Positions 27,607 to 38,012 of a stretch of DNA of 64,000 bases are shown one piece after another (the first letter of the stretch is position 1; the number at the start of each line of letters is the position of its first letter). A program made the position numbers and the translations under genes. Origin of the DNA: Patescibacteria group bacterium (lineage in GTDB: Bacteria; Patescibacteriota; Patescibacteriia; UBA9934); assembly GCA_041666145.1 (NCBI GenBank), contig JBAYHK010000001.1:67810-131809 (forward strand). Reading direction: 5' to 3'. Under the pieces are notes generated by a model, which did not search any database, had not been told where the DNA came from, and saw only the letters and a list, made by a program, of their open reading frames with translations.

Positions 27607-28896
27607 ATGGCACACACCATTGAAACGACCGGCGAAAACATGGTTAAAGTCACAGTAACGGTTTCAAAAGAAAAGGTGGCGGAAGCAATGCAGGAAGCTG
27701 CAAAACATATTGCCGCAACAGTAAACATGCCAGGATTTCGTCCAGGAACTGCCACGTACGAAGTAGTAAAACAACGCGTTGGCGAAATGAAAATCCTTGA
27801 AGAGGCCGCAGAAGACCTTATTCGCGCATCCTTTGCGTCTGCAATGATCGACGAAGACCTCGACGCTGTTGGGGCACCGCATTTCAGCATGGACGTTATG
27901 GTTCCGGGCGAAGACCTCATTTACAGCGCAGAAGTTGCGCTCATGCCAAAAGTAAAAAAACTTGCAGACTATACAGCGCTCACCGTTACAAAAGAACCGA
28001 CCGAACCAACGCCAGAAACTATTGAGCAAGCAAAGGCGGACATTGCAAGAATGCAAACCAAAGAAACTCGCGCGCTTGCCGGGCACACACTGCAAAAAGG
28101 AGACAAAGCTGTTCTCAATCTCACCATGAAAAAAGGCGGAGTCGTTCTTGAAGGTGGCGAGAGCCAAAATCACGGCGTGTACACCAACGAATCTTATTAC
28201 ATCGACGGATTCGTCGAACAGATTCTTGGCCTTGCAGAAGGCGCAGAAAAAACATTCGCGCTCAAGTTTCCAGCAGATCATTATCAAAAACATCTTGCCG
28301 GCTCAGATGTCGACTTTACCGTGCGCCTCAACGAAATCTTTACTCTAGAAATTCCTTCAATCGATGATGAATTTGCAAAGCGCCTCGGACTAGACAACGT
28401 AGCAAATCTTGAAATCAAACTCAAAGAAAATCTTGCGCTCGAAAATGTCACAACAGAAAAGCGAAGACAAGAACGTGCATGTCTTGATCTTCTTGCAAGC
28501 AAATCCGAGTTCGATCAAATCCCAGACGTGCTCGTCAACCAAGAGATCGAACGAATGCTTCAAGAGCTTGAACATTCAATCGGTGAAAATGGGATGGAAT
28601 TAAAAGAATATCTGAAGTCCATCGGAAAGAGCGTTGCAGAAATAAAGCTCGACTTTACGCCAACTGCGCTTACTCGCGTAAAAATTGCTCTCCTCATTCG
28701 CGAAATCAGTAAAAAAGAAAACGTCACCATCGATGCAGCTCTAGTCGATGCCGAACTCGACAAGATTGCAGAACGCATGGGTGAAAACAAAGAATATCGT
28801 GATCGAGTTTACGAGCCAGAATATCGTGAGTTTGTAGAGTTCCAAATGCGTAACCGCGCAGTCGTCGACAAAATCATGGCAGCAATGGTGAAGTAA
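27607..28896 (+). CDS. tig: Trigger factor
   Basis: N-terminal ribosome-binding domain with GFRPG motif, FKBP-like middle domain and C-terminal arm. ORF-track start trimmed to MAHTIETTGENMVKV. Confidence 0.85.
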   Translation: MAHTIETTGENMVKVTVTVSKEKVAEAMQEAAKHIAATVNMPGFRPGTATYEVVKQRVGEMKILEEAAEDLIRASFASAMIDEDLDAVGAPHFSMDVMVPGEDLIYSAEVALMPKVKKLADYTALTVTKEPTEPTPETIEQAKADIARMQTKETRALAGHTLQKGDKAVLNLTMKKGGVVLEGGESQNHGVYTNESYYIDGFVEQILGLAEGAEKTFALKFPADHYQKHLAGSDVDFTVRLNEIFTLEIPSIDDEFAKRLGLDNVANLEIKLKENLALENVTTEKRRQERACLDLLASKSEFDQIPDVLVNQEIERMLQELEHSIGENGMELKEYLKSIGKSVAEIKLDFTPTALTRVKIALLIREISKKENVTIDAALVDAELDKIAERMGENKEYRDRVYEPEYREFVEFQMRNRAVVDKIMAAMVK

Positions 28897-28910
28897 CCCA
28901 GACATCAAAC

Positions 28911-28939
28911 GGCCCCGACTCTCGTGTAGAGTCGGGGCC
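28911..28939. terminator. Bidirectional intrinsic terminator hairpin GGCCCCGACTCtcgtgtaGAGTCGGGGCC (copy 1 of 4 near-identical copies)
   Basis: 11 bp perfect stem with 7 nt loop, followed by gtgagttt. Serves tig (+) and the convergent small gene (-). Confidence 0.8.
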
Positions 28940-28979
28940 GTGAGTTTGTCGAAACGCTTCAATGGCCTCGACAGACGTC

Positions 28980-29186
28980 CTAATTTAGAGGAGTTGTTTT
29001 AGAAACAAGACCCGCGATACCAATTTGCAGGACCAAGAGCCCGAAAACTGGCAAGGACACGGATACGCATCCAAAAGACGCGATACTAGTTGATACGTCT
29101 CTTGGATCATAGACCCAGGAGCAGAAGATAAACGCGGCTAATCCAAGAAACACTAACGCCCAAAAACCGATTCTCTTGACCGTCAC
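28980..29186 (-). CDS. Small two-TM membrane protein, cassette-array paralog 1 (68 aa)
   Basis: Start codon, basic N-terminus, two hydrophobic helices. RBS agagaggtg upstream. Paralogous to the next three ORFs. Confidence 0.6.
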   Translation of the reverse strand: MTVKRIGFWALVFLGLAAFIFCSWVYDPRDVSTSIASFGCVSVSLPVFGLLVLQIGIAGLVSKTTPLN

Positions 29187-29471
29187 TATTCACCTCTCTT
29201 TTCATTACGAAGCTTGGTGGTTGTTTTCAGATCAAGCGCATCTTCGCAGTTTGTGCTTGAACGGGGAATAATGGCACAAATTAGCCAAAAGAACAAGACG
29301 ACGATTTGGGTGAAATATTGATCAGTTCCCAGAAGATTTCATGTTTGAGCTTACCGTAAACGAGTTGGAATCTTAAGGTGCCAAATTGGTACCTCAAGTT
29401 GGGGCGGTCAACGATTGCTCATTGATGATTCAGAAAAGCCGAAAATCGGTTTCAAGAAAAGATAATCAAAC

Positions 29472-29500
29472 GGCCCCGGCTCTCGCGTAGAGTCGGGGCC
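29472..29500. terminator. Terminator hairpin copy 2 (GGCCCCGGCTCtcgcgtaGAGTCGGGGCC)
   Basis: Near-identical to copy 1, immediately 3' of the minus-strand small ORF 29545..29739. Confidence 0.75.
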
Positions 29501-29544
29501 GTGAGTTTTTTGGGCGTGCCGAAGGCCTCAATGGAAACCCTGAC

Positions 29545-29739
29545 TCATCTCCTTGGGGGGGAAAGGCAGAAACCCAAAAGACCAACAGCGATGCCCATGA
29601 GTCCGCCGAAAATGCCGATTACTCTCGTAACAAAGATCACCGCTGCATCAGAACTACCTACTGGCTCGTAAAAAGCGAAAGATACGAGCAACACGAGCCC
29701 AAAAAGAATCACCAGCAAATAACGGAATCTTCGACTCAC
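29545..29739 (-). CDS. Small two-TM membrane protein, cassette-array paralog 2 (64 aa)
   Basis: MSRRFRYLLVILFGLVLLVSFAFYEPVGSSDAAVIFVTRVIGIFGGLMGIAVGLLGFCLSPPRR. Confidence 0.6.
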   Translation of the reverse strand: MSRRFRYLLVILFGLVLLVSFAFYEPVGSSDAAVIFVTRVIGIFGGLMGIAVGLLGFCLSPPRR

Positions 29740-29876
29740 AGTTCACCTCTCTCTTTCCACGGAGTTTGAAGGTTATTTTCAATTCAAGCCCATCTCCGTA
29801 GTTTGTGCTTGAACGAGGAATAATGGCACAAGTTAGCCAAAAGAACAAGGCTAAAATCATTCGAATGACATCAAAC

Positions 29877-29905
29877 GGCTCCGACTCTCGTGTAGAGTTG
29901 GGGCC
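29877..29905. terminator. Terminator hairpin copy 3 (GGCTCCGACTCtcgtgtaGAGTTGGGGCC)
   Basis: Same hairpin with compensatory C/T and T/G changes, 3' of ORF 29952..30143. Also forms the 3' end of a conserved plus-strand 27-codon ORF (29823..29909, MAQVSQKNKAKIIRMTSNGSDSRVELGP). Confidence 0.75.
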
Positions 29906-29951
29906 GTGAGTTTTTTGAAGCGTTTCGAATCTCTCGATAAGCACCCTGACC

Positions 29952-30143
29952 CTATCTTCTCGAACGAAACAGGCCGAAAAGGCCAACGGCAATGCCTACC
30001 AGCGAACTGAAGACGCCGAATACTTGCACGACATACATCGTCGCCACATCAGCCGAGCCATCTTTTGGCCCATAAAAACCAAAGAAGATAAGACACGCCA
30101 ATCCGCAAAGAATCAGCAACAAAGAACGGATTCCTCTAAACAT
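29952..30143 (-). CDS. Small two-TM membrane protein, cassette-array paralog 3 (63 aa)
   Basis: MFRGIRSLLLILCGLACLIFFGFYGPKDGSADVATMYVVQVFGVFSSLVGIAVGLFGLFRSRR, about 50% identical to paralog 2. Confidence 0.6.
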   Translation of the reverse strand: MFRGIRSLLLILCGLACLIFFGFYGPKDGSADVATMYVVQVFGVFSSLVGIAVGLFGLFRSRR

Positions 30144-30281
30144 TATTCACCTCTCTCTTTTTTGCGAAGTTTGAAGGTTGTCTTCGAATCAAGCGCGTCT
30201 CCACAGTTTGCGCTTGAACGAGGAATAATGGCACAAGTTAGCCAAAAGAACAAGGCTAAAATCATTCGAATGACATCAAAC

Positions 30282-30310
30282 GGCTCCGACTCTCGTGTAG
30301 AGTTGGGGCC
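30282..30310. terminator. Terminator hairpin copy 4 (degenerate downstream T-tract)
   Basis: Same stem-loop. The flanking ~110 bp is about 95% identical to the copy-3 region. Confidence 0.6.
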
Positions 30311-30335
30311 GTTCGTATTTGCTGGGAACCTATTT

Positions 30336-30581
30336 CTAATTCGGATGTTTCAAGCTCCTCTGTCTGCAAAACGTCCGAACTTCTTCAAATCCAGCCGCCA
30401 TGGCCAGAAGCCAAACAACGGACAAGAGAACACAGAGCGCGATTGCAACAAATGGATGCTCCCTCCACAGTACAAAACGGCTCCTCGTTCCATGATCGAG
30501 CAAAATCGCCATCACAAAAAAGCTCGTGACGCTCAATGCCGCATAGAAAAACACCCTCAACCAAAGTAGCCGACTGGACAC
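30336..30581 (-). CDS. Small membrane protein, divergent cassette-array member 4 (81 aa)
   Basis: MSSRLLWLRVFFYAALSVTSFFVMAILLDHG...VAIALCVLLSVVWLLAMAAGF. Two TM helices. Same position and orientation as the other array members. Confidence 0.5.
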   Translation of the reverse strand: MSSRLLWLRVFFYAALSVTSFFVMAILLDHGTRSRFVLWREHPFVAIALCVLLSVVWLLAMAAGFEEVRTFCRQRSLKHPN

Positions 30582-30752
30582 GAATCACCTCCATGTAAAT
30601 TTGTCACCCACGTCATCAAGCTCGCCTCGCTGGCGTTCGCCTGAGTAAAGGACGGTGACATAAATTAGCGAGGAAATCAAGCCTACAATGCAAAAATCAG
30701 GCAACGTGGAAGTGAACCACGACGCCTGATTCGTTAAGAATGGCTTGAATAA

Positions 30753-31313
30753 CTAGAGTCTTGGTATCCAACTAAAGCCAACGAGCGCCTTCGGCGATCT
30801 CGACTCTAAGTCGTAAAGCGGAGCTGCCCAGACATCGAGACTCGGCCTCGACAAGGAGTAGCCGATTCGAGGGCCGATGCCGTCGAAACGCTGCGCAAGC
30901 ACACCGATCGTAACGGGTTCCGCCTTGTACGAGGCCGAAACTTTGTACCAGGGCCCGCTTCCACCGTACTCAGCAATGCCGAGGAAGCTGAGCTTTTTGT
31001 TACTTATCGACGAATAGGCCATTACTCTCCATGGAGCATCGGCGGACTCGATCCCGCCGGCGATGCCGAGAGAGATGCTCTTTTTTGGGCTCCAGGTCGG
31101 GCCGACATACGCCTCGCTCCAATTAGGCGACACAACGAACGTCGCAGTCACCGAAAGATCATGAACGGCCGGAATGTCGACGATCGCCTTGGCTCGCGGG
31201 GTTACGGCTCCCGCAACATCGATCTGATTCTCTGAGGCAAGAAGGACGAAGGGATCGGAAGCGGAGGCGGAAGCAATAACGAGAGAAGCGACGGTGACGA
31301 CGAGAGCGGACAT
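30753..31313 (-). CDS. Secreted hypothetical protein (beta-rich, signal peptide)
   Basis: MSALVVTVASLVIASASASDP signal peptide. GC-elevated. C-terminal ...ALVGFSWIPRL. Confidence 0.55.
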   Translation of the reverse strand: MSALVVTVASLVIASASASDPFVLLASENQIDVAGAVTPRAKAIVDIPAVHDLSVTATFVVSPNWSEAYVGPTWSPKKSISLGIAGGIESADAPWRVMAYSSISNKKLSFLGIAEYGGSGPWYKVSASYKAEPVTIGVLAQRFDGIGPRIGYSLSRPSLDVWAAPLYDLESRSPKALVGFSWIPRL

Positions 31314-31398: not shown

Positions 31399-31415
31399 GT
31401 CCACAAGCTGTGGAC
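31399..31415. promoter_or_regulatory. Perfect inverted repeat GTCCACAagcTGTGGAC (two inverted DnaA-box-like TGTCCACA half-sites) upstream of the TrmB-like regulator gene; a second TTGTCCACAA lies at 31478..31487
   Basis: Seen directly in sequence. Candidate operator or DnaA-titration site. Confidence 0.35.
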
Positions 31416-31505
31416 TCTTTAAGCTCTGGAAGCCCGTATCATAAGGCATTTTCTGCTGTTGATGAGTTATTGACAACTTGTCCACAATGTTGATATTGTC
31501 GCTCA

Positions 31506-36734: not shown

Positions 36735-37868
36735 GTGAAGCTCTCTTGTACGCGAGAAAACTTATATCAAGGTCTTTCCATTACCAGTCATACCGGAGGA
36801 AAGAATGCGAACCTTCCGATTCTTAATAACATTCTTCTTCGAGCAGACATCGGCGGCTTAAAGCTCACCGCGACAAACCTCGAGTTAACGATTACCTGTA
36901 CGATTCGAGGGAAGGTAGACCAGCCTGGCGAATACACGCTTCCAGCAAAACTCTTTGTTGATTACGTTTCCCTTCTTCCAAATGAGCGCGTTGATCTTGA
37001 TCTTCTTGACCATGCGCTTTCAGTAACGTGCGATAAAACAAAAACAAAAATCAACGGACTTCCGGCGAATGAATTTCCACTCATCCCTCCAGTCACGGGA
37101 GGGGTCAGGTTCGTTGTTCCGGCCTCTGCGTTCGACGCAGCGCTCGGAAACGTTCTCTTTGCCGTTGCGACGAATGAAGCGCGTCAGGCGCTCACTGGAG
37201 TCTTCATGCATTTTGACGGGCTGAATGATCAAGTCGTTCTTGCTGCAACGGATAGTTATCGACTTGCAGAAAAAATTATTCCTCTCGCAGAGCGTGTAGA
37301 GGGCGAGCGCAAGACGATCGTTCCGTCGCGAACGCTTGCAGAGCTTCGTCGTATTTTGAGCGTGCTTCGAGACAACGCAGACGCGCCAGAGAACGTAGAT
37401 ATTGAGCTTACGGAAAGTCAGATTGTCTTTCGATATGGAACCGTTGAGCTTTCATCTCGTACTGTTGAAGGCGTGTACCCAGATTATCGACAGATTATCC
37501 CGAAGTCGGCATCAACAGAGATCACGGTCGATAAGGGCGCCTTTGCTCAGGCAATTAAGCGAACAAGTCTTTTTTCTAAAGCTGGACTTTTCGATGTGAA
37601 GCTTGAAATTAATCCAGTCGATAAAAATATTACACTTTCTGCTGCAGATGTCGGACGTGGCGAGAACACGGTTTCGATCGAAGGCGACGTCACGGGGATT
37701 GCGAGCGCCGCTGTTCTGAACTTTCGCTATTTACTCGACGGTGTGAATGCGATGTTGTCAGATCGAGTGGTTTTGAAGTTTATCGACGCGATGAATCCTT
37801 GCGTGGTGGTTCCTGAGAATCGTCCAGGAGATAAATATCTTTACATTGTGATGCCAATTCGGCAGTAG
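36735..37868 (+). CDS. dnaN: DNA polymerase III beta subunit (sliding clamp)
   Basis: 377 aa. Three-domain clamp pattern. Follows dnaA. Confidence 0.9.
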   Translation: MKLSCTRENLYQGLSITSHTGGKNANLPILNNILLRADIGGLKLTATNLELTITCTIRGKVDQPGEYTLPAKLFVDYVSLLPNERVDLDLLDHALSVTCDKTKTKINGLPANEFPLIPPVTGGVRFVVPASAFDAALGNVLFAVATNEARQALTGVFMHFDGLNDQVVLAATDSYRLAEKIIPLAERVEGERKTIVPSRTLAELRRILSVLRDNADAPENVDIELTESQIVFRYGTVELSSRTVEGVYPDYRQIIPKSASTEITVDKGAFAQAIKRTSLFSKAGLFDVKLEINPVDKNITLSAADVGRGENTVSIEGDVTGIASAAVLNFRYLLDGVNAMLSDRVVLKFIDAMNPCVVVPENRPGDKYLYIVMPIRQ

Positions 37869-37920
37869 GGATTAAAAAACGTCCTAATTCTCTTTCGAGT
37901 TTTGGGACGTTTTTGTTATT

Positions 37921-38012
37921 TCGTCATTGCGAGGAAGGTAATCCTGACGAAGCGATCCAGGCCAGGCTCACATAAAGATTGCTTCGTTAGGATTACCTTC
38001 CTCGCAATGGCT
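37921..38012. repeat. REP/MITE-like element copy A: 29 bp inverted repeat CATTGCGAGGAAGGTAATCCTGACGAAGC / GCTTCGTTAGGATTACCTTCCTCGCAATG with 27 nt spacer
   Basis: Seen directly. The same about 40 bp motif recurs at 52401 and 60240, always just after a terminator. Confidence 0.7.

Follow-up and report, generated by a model that had tools for sequence, protein, structure and literature searches.

A tandem array of genes for small, predicted two-helix membrane proteins with conserved leaders and repeated hairpins in a variable island of a Patescibacterium

Why should the non-coding parts of a gene array be more conserved than the coding parts that they accompany? This question is raised by a minus-strand, head-to-tail array of four small genes, termed A, B, C and D, which is located between tig and the porin-like gene p186 in a 64,000-nucleotide (nt) stretch of contig JBAYHK010000001.1 from a groundwater-dwelling Patescibacteria group bacterium (assembly GCA_041666145.1), referred to here as the window. 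An earlier inspection of the letters alone, the sequence-only reading, had described tandem cassettes, each composed of a gene for a small protein with two transmembrane helices and a repeated hairpin, and had compared them to type I toxin–antitoxin (TA) loci. The layout was borne out by the coordinates and by four hairpin copies, and the central observation also stands, since the flanks of B and C (29760-29915 versus 30165-30320) are 92% identical, compared to 64% nucleotide and 52% amino-acid (aa) identity for the coding sequences. On balance, the locus is probably a tandem array specific to its lineage, in which genes for small helical-hairpin membrane proteins, each under separate and tight control, were duplicated inside a decaying mobile island, and the non-coding conservation would reflect selection together with some concerted evolution.

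Gene A (28980-29186, 68 aa) and gene B (29545-29739, 64 aa) start with GTG, gene C (29952-30143, 63 aa) starts with ATG, and gene D (30336-30581) encodes 81 aa; all of them lie on the minus strand, and each product features two transmembrane helices. The motif GAGGTG was found 5-6 nt 5' of the start codon in all four open reading frames (ORFs), the Shine–Dalgarno (SD) sequence being GAGAGGTG in A and GGAGGTG in D. Two hydrophobic segments were recognized in each of the proteins, whose N- and C-terminal ends both contain basic residues; those of A, B and C terminate in RSRR, PPRR and SKTTPLN, respectively, and membrane insertion with an N-in/C-in topology is predicted for them. Units B and C both measure exactly 405 nt. 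Codon usage ranked the named frame best of six in all four genes, though weakly so, with scores of -0.03 to 0.10 bits per codon compared to 0.09 for the neighbouring p186 and 0.31 for typical genes.

The whole array, within the same 6.2 kb, was recovered with 100% identity in two independent assemblies from different samples (JGI 3300037810 and ENA ERZ27249449), and the two Logan contigs of the window strain (L037 and L038) break exactly at the fourth hairpin, as expected for a repeat. The array is therefore real, and an assembly artefact is ruled out. Public gene calls contain C but neither A, B nor D. Two spurious ORFs were called instead, one antisense to D (L035 6745-7086, corresponding to window 30228-30569, plus strand) and one spanning the repeat upstream of B (L035 7370-7660, window 29654-29944, minus strand).

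The coding parts of A, B and C are old paralogs under purifying selection. Amino-acid identity amounts to 52% for B and C, 34% for A and C and 25% for A and B, so that the value of about 50% given by the sequence-only reading applies to the first pair only. For B versus C, nonsynonymous divergence (dN) was 0.37 and synonymous divergence (dS) 1.0, resulting in a dN/dS of about 0.37; in the other pairs dS was saturated (at least 1.6) and dN/dS ranged between 0.36 and 0.53. Given these ratios, the proteins are not evolving unusually fast, contrary to what had been supposed, and it is the constraint on the non-coding part that is unusual. Paralogy had also been assumed for all four genes. It holds for A, B and C; D showed only 20% identity to them in a multiple alignment and no BLAST match, and resembles them merely in its position, its SD sequence and a degenerate leader (30582-30690, minus strand) with partial similarity to the other leaders (ATCAAGC, AAATTAGC and CAAG). 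Judged by sequence comparison, its paralogy is not demonstrable.

The leaders of A (29187-29297), B (29740-29849) and C (30144-30254), all on the minus strand, were described earlier as more than 90% identical. Over the 114 nt upstream of the start codons, identity was found to be 83-85%, and only a 36-nt promoter core (CTTGTTCTTTTGGCTAAYTTGTGCCATTATTCC) reaches 94-100% in every pair; outside this core, the paralogous leaders are 75-81% identical. The similarity block has the same first base in A, B, C and a sister fragment described below, namely that of the minus-strand CTTGTTC containing the -35 box, and ends at the start codon. Past CTTGTTC, the sequence differs by context: A has what remains of an ORF6N-domain gene, B and C both have a 25-nt linker plus hairpin, and the sister fragment has the p186 terminator region. 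The linker between the -35 box and hairpin 3 (29850-29874) is identical at 30255-30279 upstream of C and absent from A and from the sister fragment. On the minus strand, the block reads TTGTTC, a 17-nt spacer, TG-n-CATTAT, a 5' untranslated region (UTR) of ~75 nt and GAGAGGTG. It is regarded as a candidate extended -10 promoter of the sigma-70 type (TTGTTC-17-TGcCATTAT) followed by leader and SD sequence. In leader A, the -10 box CATTAT, preceded by TG, is located at 29273-29268 and the -35 box TTGTTC at 29296-29291; in leader B, the corresponding boxes lie at 29825-29820 and 29848-29843, and the parts of leader C are those of B shifted by +405. Since conservation ends exactly at the minus-strand -35 box, the block most likely represents the promoter and leader of the mRNA rather than the body of a plus-strand RNA.

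How strongly this block is constrained became apparent from L042, a 927-nt ENA contig of a sister strain originating from one of the array's own samples. It carries an ortholog of p186 (75% aa and 79% nt identity, dS 0.62), and directly after the p186 terminator a leader with only 6 mismatches to leader B in 114 nt (95% identity, as also outside the core). A diverged small-gene start (MAFQKIGYSLLILF...) follows 3' of this leader, with the SD sequence, the GTG start and a similar N-terminus kept, before the contig ends 40 nt into the small gene. Compared with the third-position divergence of p186, the number of leader mismatches is very low (P=8e-14), which argues for strong purifying selection on the leader across genomes; on this comparison, gene conversion within a single genome is unable to produce the conservation seen. 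The regulatory DNA and the structured mRNA leader evolve about ten times slower than neighbouring synonymous sites, while the proteins drift.

Selection is probably not the only contributor to the non-coding identity. Upstream of B and C, 103 nt comprising promoter, linker and hairpin are identical, whereas the adjoining 5'UTR is only 79% identical, and this abrupt drop points to one recent gene conversion or duplication of the 103-nt segment.

The leader RNA itself also seems to be under constraint. An 8-bp stem, S2, is formed by CUACGGAG with CUCCGUGG in B (29801-29794 with 29764-29757) and was found to be kept in all four leaders, with three of its eight pairs changed on both sides (U-A/C-G, A-U/G-C and G-C/A-U). 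Ninety percent of the cells are paired, compared to 32-44% with slid partners, and G.U pairs are permitted on the mRNA strand only. An inverted repeat, S1 (UUCAAGC/GCUUGAA), lies at the predicted 5' end of the leader; it is invariant and hence uninformative, and since it overlaps S2/S3, two mutually exclusive folds are predicted. In the minimum-energy folds of the predicted mRNAs of A, B and C, the 5'-terminal UCAAGC pairs with GUUUGA located 3' of the terminator hairpin, both elements being invariant in every copy. This pairing may be due to chance or may represent a 5'-3' closing interaction, as occurs in some toxin mRNAs.

The leaders were also compared with known elements. At the gathering threshold, Rfam 15 detected only tRNAs in the window and matched neither leader nor hairpin, and a permissive scan of 28800-30900 gave nothing below E 0.17. 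No leader match was obtained among viral contigs; the protein alignment was too divergent to serve as a locus search. A sigma-54 promoter on the plus strand (TGGCAC-N4-TAGC) was rejected, its spacing being one base short, as was a TrmB operator, for GTCCACA-N3-TGTGGAC is absent from the leaders and the shared 7-mer AACTTGT is within chance.

The second conserved component is the hairpin. Its pattern, GGCYCCGRCTC-N7-GAGTYGGGGCC, has only four occurrences in the window, at 28911, 29472, 29877 and 30282 (0 expected from shuffles), and together with ~10 nt on each side it is 85-95% identical in all four copies. The four copies had been reported as the same perfect hairpin; they are present, but only the first is perfect. 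Hairpin 1 (28909-28941) forms a 14-bp perfect stem of -29.7 kcal/mol on both strands; it stands at the 3' end of gene A and also serves as the terminator of tig on the plus strand, as had been noted earlier. Copies 2 to 4 contain one or two G.U pairs each on the plus strand, which correspond to A.C mismatches on the minus strand. Hairpin 2 (29470-29502, at the 3' end of B) has one such pair (-29.1 kcal/mol on the plus versus -24.6 kcal/mol on the minus strand), and hairpin 3 (29875-29907, at the 3' end of C) has two (-24.6 versus -16.8 kcal/mol), both being followed by GAGTTTTTT on the plus strand; hairpin 4 (30279-30313, at the 3' end of D) has the same core as hairpin 3. The plus-strand RNA hairpin is more stable by 4.5-7.8 kcal/mol in copies 2 and 3 and by 3.7 kcal/mol in copy 4. 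All three stem substitutions are transitions yielding G.U on the plus strand, a bias that is only suggestive, given its chance probability of 1/8. Regarding the proposed bidirectional terminator, the hairpins are indeed stable on both strands, but a consensus U-tract is present, and the hairpins score as consensus terminators, on the plus strand only. Scanning metagenome DNA for the hairpin pattern returned 23 matches, all of them unrelated high-GC hairpins.

The plus-strand orientation of the hairpins can in part probably be explained by the history of the locus. Cassette A contains ~165 additional nt between leader A and hairpin 2, and these were identified as the relic of an ORF6N-domain gene (29312-29463, plus strand) consisting of two fragments that correspond to approximately codons 46-74 and 156-167 of the ORF6N gene of the relative L044. 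The relic matched the ORF6N genes of relatives with blastn E-values of 5e-8 and 7.5e-6, tblastn recovered NIDQFPEDFMFELTVNE and DDSEKPKIGFK, and the only match in a plasmid database was likewise an annotated ORF6N gene (E 7e-6); no match was found in a phage database. Its stop codon TAA (29461-29463) is located 8 nt 5' of hairpin 2, the former ORF6N terminator, and intact ORF6N (antirepressor-like) genes occupy the corresponding slot in relatives. Hairpin 1 is the terminator of tig and hairpin 2 was that of ORF6N; the plus-strand orientation can therefore be inherited and need not be evidence of a small RNA (sRNA). Two extensions of the relic were discarded: the B/C linker as a further ORF6N remnant was not significant (577 of 2000 shuffles), and homology of the leader to the ORF6N 5' coding region had weak support in the protein comparison (24% identity, E 0.11) and no match in the DNA comparison.

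A plus-strand transcript was also considered. In A, B and C alike, the -10 boxes AATAAT (plus strand, 29819-29824 in B) and CATTAT (minus strand, 29825-29820 in B) are shifted against each other by a single base, an arrangement known from bidirectional promoters whose start sites lie about 18 bp apart (PMC10268837). Judged by sequence, a short plus-strand RNA that extends for roughly 85 nt up to the next hairpin is accordingly plausible. A convergent ORF of 27 codons had been noted in this region, but it is not conserved. What is kept of it is only MAQ(V/I)SQKNK, nine codons encoded by the promoter, after which the continuations are unrelated, with 16 aa in A, 26 aa in L042 and 28 aa in B/C; in B, the ORF has an in-frame stop eight codons upstream, and in cassette A its middle is the decayed ORF6N gene.

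Taken together, these findings can be arranged into the following model. The host would be an Uhrbacteria-like Patescibacterium, and the array would reside in a variable island of mobile-element origin reaching from tig to nfo. Each minus-strand unit would consist of an extended -10 promoter, a structured 5'UTR of ~75 nt, a strong SD sequence, the coding sequence, a 3'UTR of ~45 nt and the GC-rich 14-bp hairpin, and the mRNAs are predicted to start near 29262, 29814 and 30219. Because the -10 box is nearly symmetric, it probably fires on the plus strand as well, and the hairpin, with its better U-tract on that strand, would stop the short divergent transcript before it could run antisense into the next gene. 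Promoter, leader and two-way terminator would be kept by strong purifying selection as expression signals, at least one recent gene conversion or duplication (the 103 nt of B/C) would add to the non-coding identity, and the coding parts would need to keep little beyond two hydrophobic helices, charged ends and small-residue packing motifs. What we infer from the DNA is where promoters and transcript ends lie and that the hairpin acts as an insulator.

Several points weigh against this interpretation. The minus-strand promoter fell below the scan threshold, and only its plus-strand mirror (TTCGCA-18-AATAAT) was reported; promoters and transcript ends were read from sequence alone. In the sense of the genes, the hairpin is followed by a poor U-tract (UUGAUGUC), which makes mRNA termination uncertain. 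Exposure of the SD sequence in the predicted full-mRNA folds is inconsistent (0.13 to 0.55). The S2 covariation is based on four sequences only and was equalled by 32 of 500 shuffles. Carriers of the family are limited to one genome and the 927-nt fragment. Finally, an invariant 17-nt spacer and near-identical hairpins at a paralog dS of at least 1 exceed the needs of a plain promoter and terminator, and this excess calls either for a further function, be it a regulator site or RNA-RNA pairing, or for gene conversion that occurred repeatedly.

The rival that survives best, although we consider it unlikely, is that the units are type I TA cassettes in which membrane toxins are repressed by the plus-strand RNA from the neighbouring promoter via 3'-3' pairing or kissing terminator loops. 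Small hydrophobic proteins with charged C-termini, arranged in tandem in one intergenic region and with similarity extending past the coding sequence, are what the heuristics of PMC2887945 look for, and promoter-like sites on the plus strand, hairpins optimised for this strand with good U-tracts although no plus-strand gene remains, a hairpin sequence that is unusually invariant including its loop, and the mobile-element origin of the island fit as well. Membrane type I toxins are characterized by a transmembrane helix, a polar or charged C-terminus and a length usually under 60 aa (PMC8309996), and the size limit applied in the type I toxin search was 70 aa (PMC2887945), with A to C within and D (81 aa) above it. 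The array proteins, with their two helices and 63-81 aa, depart from the usual single helix and shorter length. Furthermore, the body of the plus-strand RNA is not conserved in A or L042, and its partner varies by copy, being a small gene, the porin-like gene or the ORF6N relic; it is the porin-like gene, rather than one for a small protein, that the RNA would run towards in L042 and upstream of D. A duplex search of the RNA body against the four mRNAs gave results no better than shuffles (z -1.0 to +0.9), and no direct repeats common to the plus-strand RNA and the translation start regions were found. The orientation of the terminators, as outlined above, is explicable by inheritance from tig and ORF6N. 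In the absence of an Fst-type peptide, of shared direct repeats and of complementarity beyond that of shuffles, the Fst/par-like arrangement suggested by the sequence-only reading finds no support in the sequence, though the shared hairpin may still have an antisense role.

Searches for the identity of the proteins point in the same direction. Only C is contained in protein databases (P0001). Word-index homolog searches with C and D and an exhaustive profile search with A to D against 1.84 billion representatives retrieved only C and a spurious repeat protein (P0002), and looking up the exact sequences of B and P0001 yielded no record. In Pfam, NCBIfam, PHROGs and PADLOC, all matches to array proteins remained below thresholds, no match to Fst, Ldr, Hok, TisB or Ibs appeared in Pfam at E<=1, and a sequence profile search of the PDB gave E>5. 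The comparison with type I toxin families (Fst, Ldr, TisB or Hok) that the sequence-only reading had recommended thus gave no match in any of these resources, nor in Rfam, and on these searches A to D are ORFans. The AlphaFold model of C is a plain two-helix hairpin (predicted local distance difference test, pLDDT, 80), with which Foldseek matched generic helical hairpins only (E>1, uninformative). In helix 2 of B and C, small-residue spacings of the types G/S-xx-G and G-xxx-G are repeated; such spacings favour helix packing and oligomers and may do so here. A derivation of A to D from the HMUDK_hel or Fic genes found in the relatives' slot was rejected by comparison.

A bolder variant holds that the array represents the first type I-like membrane-toxin system in Patescibacteria and one of new design, in which two-helix toxins of 63-68 aa would be checked by a new 5' leader that is structured and highly conserved, by a short RNA transcribed divergently from the adjacent cassette and ending in the shared hairpin, or by both, so that the cassettes would police one another along the array. 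We regard this as a doubtful prospect.

Similarly improbable, in our estimation, is that the array consists of recombination-driven variable cassettes, whose leader and hairpin would be kept by gene conversion as homology arms for duplication, deletion or exchange, for example of surface, exclusion or immunity proteins of an episymbiont. The 103 identical nt beside a 79%-identical 5'UTR speak for this, as do the sharp breaks of identity at the start codon and at the end of the hairpin. The sister genome has a B-type leader beside p186 where the window has D, indicating that array composition differs between close relatives, and contigs end or break within the array (L042 inside the small gene, L037 and L038 at the repeat, hairpin 4). 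On the other hand, 95% leader identity between genomes at a neighbour dS of 0.62 would require recombination between strains too, the compensatory changes in S2 indicate selection on RNA structure, dN/dS is below 1, and no recombinase or integrase was detected in the gene lists reaching ~3.8 kb on the tig side and ~6 kb on the nfo side beyond the array.

Two specific cassette systems were also compared. Integron attC sites are recognized by paired R''/R' core sites (RYYYAAC...GTTRRRY) and by stems that are imperfect and contain extrahelical bases, and an integrase is usually encoded close by; they were rejected on account of the perfect or near-perfect stem, a 5-nt loop, flanks (ATCAAAC/GTGAGTT) that are not complementary, the lack of an integrase in those gene lists, and cassette genes that are paralogous to each other. 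A diversity-generating retroelement was likewise rejected, with neither a reverse transcriptase nor a template/variable repeat pair nearby and with differences that are not adenine-restricted.

That the small ORFs are no genes at all, but chance open frames in mobile-island debris or in a non-coding RNA array, is very improbable: the ORF6N pseudogene inside the array, the failure of gene callers to find A, B and D, the low codon-usage scores (-0.03 to 0.10 versus 0.31 bits per codon) and the lack of homologs among 1.8 billion cluster representatives would suit this view, but every ORF has a strong conserved SD sequence at the right spacing, the pattern of two helices with positive charges at both ends and the best of six frames recur in four of four, dN is below dS, and the L042 copy keeps the SD sequence, the GTG start and a similar N-terminus.

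As for the genomic surroundings, relatives found through tig were Patescibacteria (Uhrbacteria-like), most of which have the genes for an M23 peptidase, tig and nfo side by side. An island that always includes the pair p186-TrmB separates tig from nfo in the window and its nearest relatives; its content is otherwise variable (L001, L039, L043 and L044), comprising HMUDK_hel, ORF6N, Fic, a methyltransferase, an IS1595 transposase and up to six TrmB paralogs. Neither the small genes nor the leader or hairpin were detected in the relatives' tig-nfo loci examined. The closest records (L001, L002, L004 and L006) bear the title 'uncultured Gammaproteobacteria bacterium'; to judge from their gene content and from the other relatives, they belong to Patescibacteria and look like mislabelled third-party assemblies. 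The genes dnaA and dnaN are located ~5 kb past nfo (L035 1-2257), where the GC skew changes its sign (window ~37000-38000). Because of this flip and the position of dnaA and dnaN just past nfo, the window is judged to span the replication origin, with the array ~7 kb from the origin and dnaA.

The array is bounded by the terminator hairpin of p186 (30694-30731, in a fold of 30640-30760), which is homologous to the hairpin of L042. The p186 gene (30753-31313, minus strand) encodes 186 aa with a signal peptide and 12 beta strands (AlphaFold pLDDT 92), and its model matched outer-membrane porins of the same size (KdgM, NanC and a designed 12-strand barrel) with template-modelling scores of 0.57-0.61. 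Patescibacteria are not known to have an outer membrane, and a barrel of this type is unexpected there. About 30 homologs of p186 were found, all in similar lineages, and a divergent TrmB regulator gene adjoins wherever the flank is visible in the examined loci. The p186-TrmB intergenic region contains a perfect palindrome, GTCCACA-AGC-TGTGGAC (31399-31415), which is likely the TrmB operator, to judge from its sequence, and is absent from the cassette leaders; a further half-site (31480-31486) lies inside the spacer of a TTGACA-17-ATATTG promoter 5' of the TrmB gene.

Small membrane proteins constitute a large and mostly unannotated share of the gene content of the candidate phyla radiation, and here three of four genes were missed by callers. 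Slow regulatory evolution, as observed for the array, points to tight expression control, as would be expected where an excess of the protein does harm. Should the proteins prove toxic, RNA-controlled membrane toxins would be extended to a phylum and a protein architecture that are both new to them. Otherwise, the locus calls for caution, since ordinary duplication in decaying mobile islands would then be able to produce tandem arrays of small hydrophobic ORFs whose flanks are conserved and whose terminators work both ways.

Among known systems, the tandem type I loci of E. coli, namely ldr-rdl, ibs-sib and zorO-orzO/zorP-orzP (PMC2887945 and PMC3919570), resemble the array in featuring several short hydrophobic ORFs per intergenic region, a promoter and a long 5'UTR for each copy, similarity beyond the coding sequence, absence from close relatives and frequent omission by gene callers. 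However, their toxins comprise 18-35 aa with one transmembrane helix and are accompanied by a demonstrated sRNA with defined complementarity, whereas the array proteins have 63-81 aa and two helices, a conserved sRNA gene is not apparent, the complementarity seen was confined to the shared terminator, and the phylum is Patescibacteria. The par locus of pAD1 (Fst, RNA I/RNA II) and fst-Sm/srSm (PMC3543317) are similar in that a small membrane-protein gene and a possible convergent transcript meet at a two-way stem-loop; the array differs from them in having no Fst-type peptide, motif or Pfam match and no start-codon direct repeats in both RNAs, and in the change of the plus-strand RNA partner from copy to copy. 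Bidirectional promoters based on -10 symmetry (Warman et al. 2021, as summarised in PMC10268837 and PMC12825309) have in common with the array the reciprocal -7T/-11A and a divergent product that here, too, would be short and non-coding, and the start sites of the array are predicted to lie ~16-18 bp apart. The array goes further, as its whole 36-nt region including the spacer is invariant across paralogs, beyond what symmetry needs.

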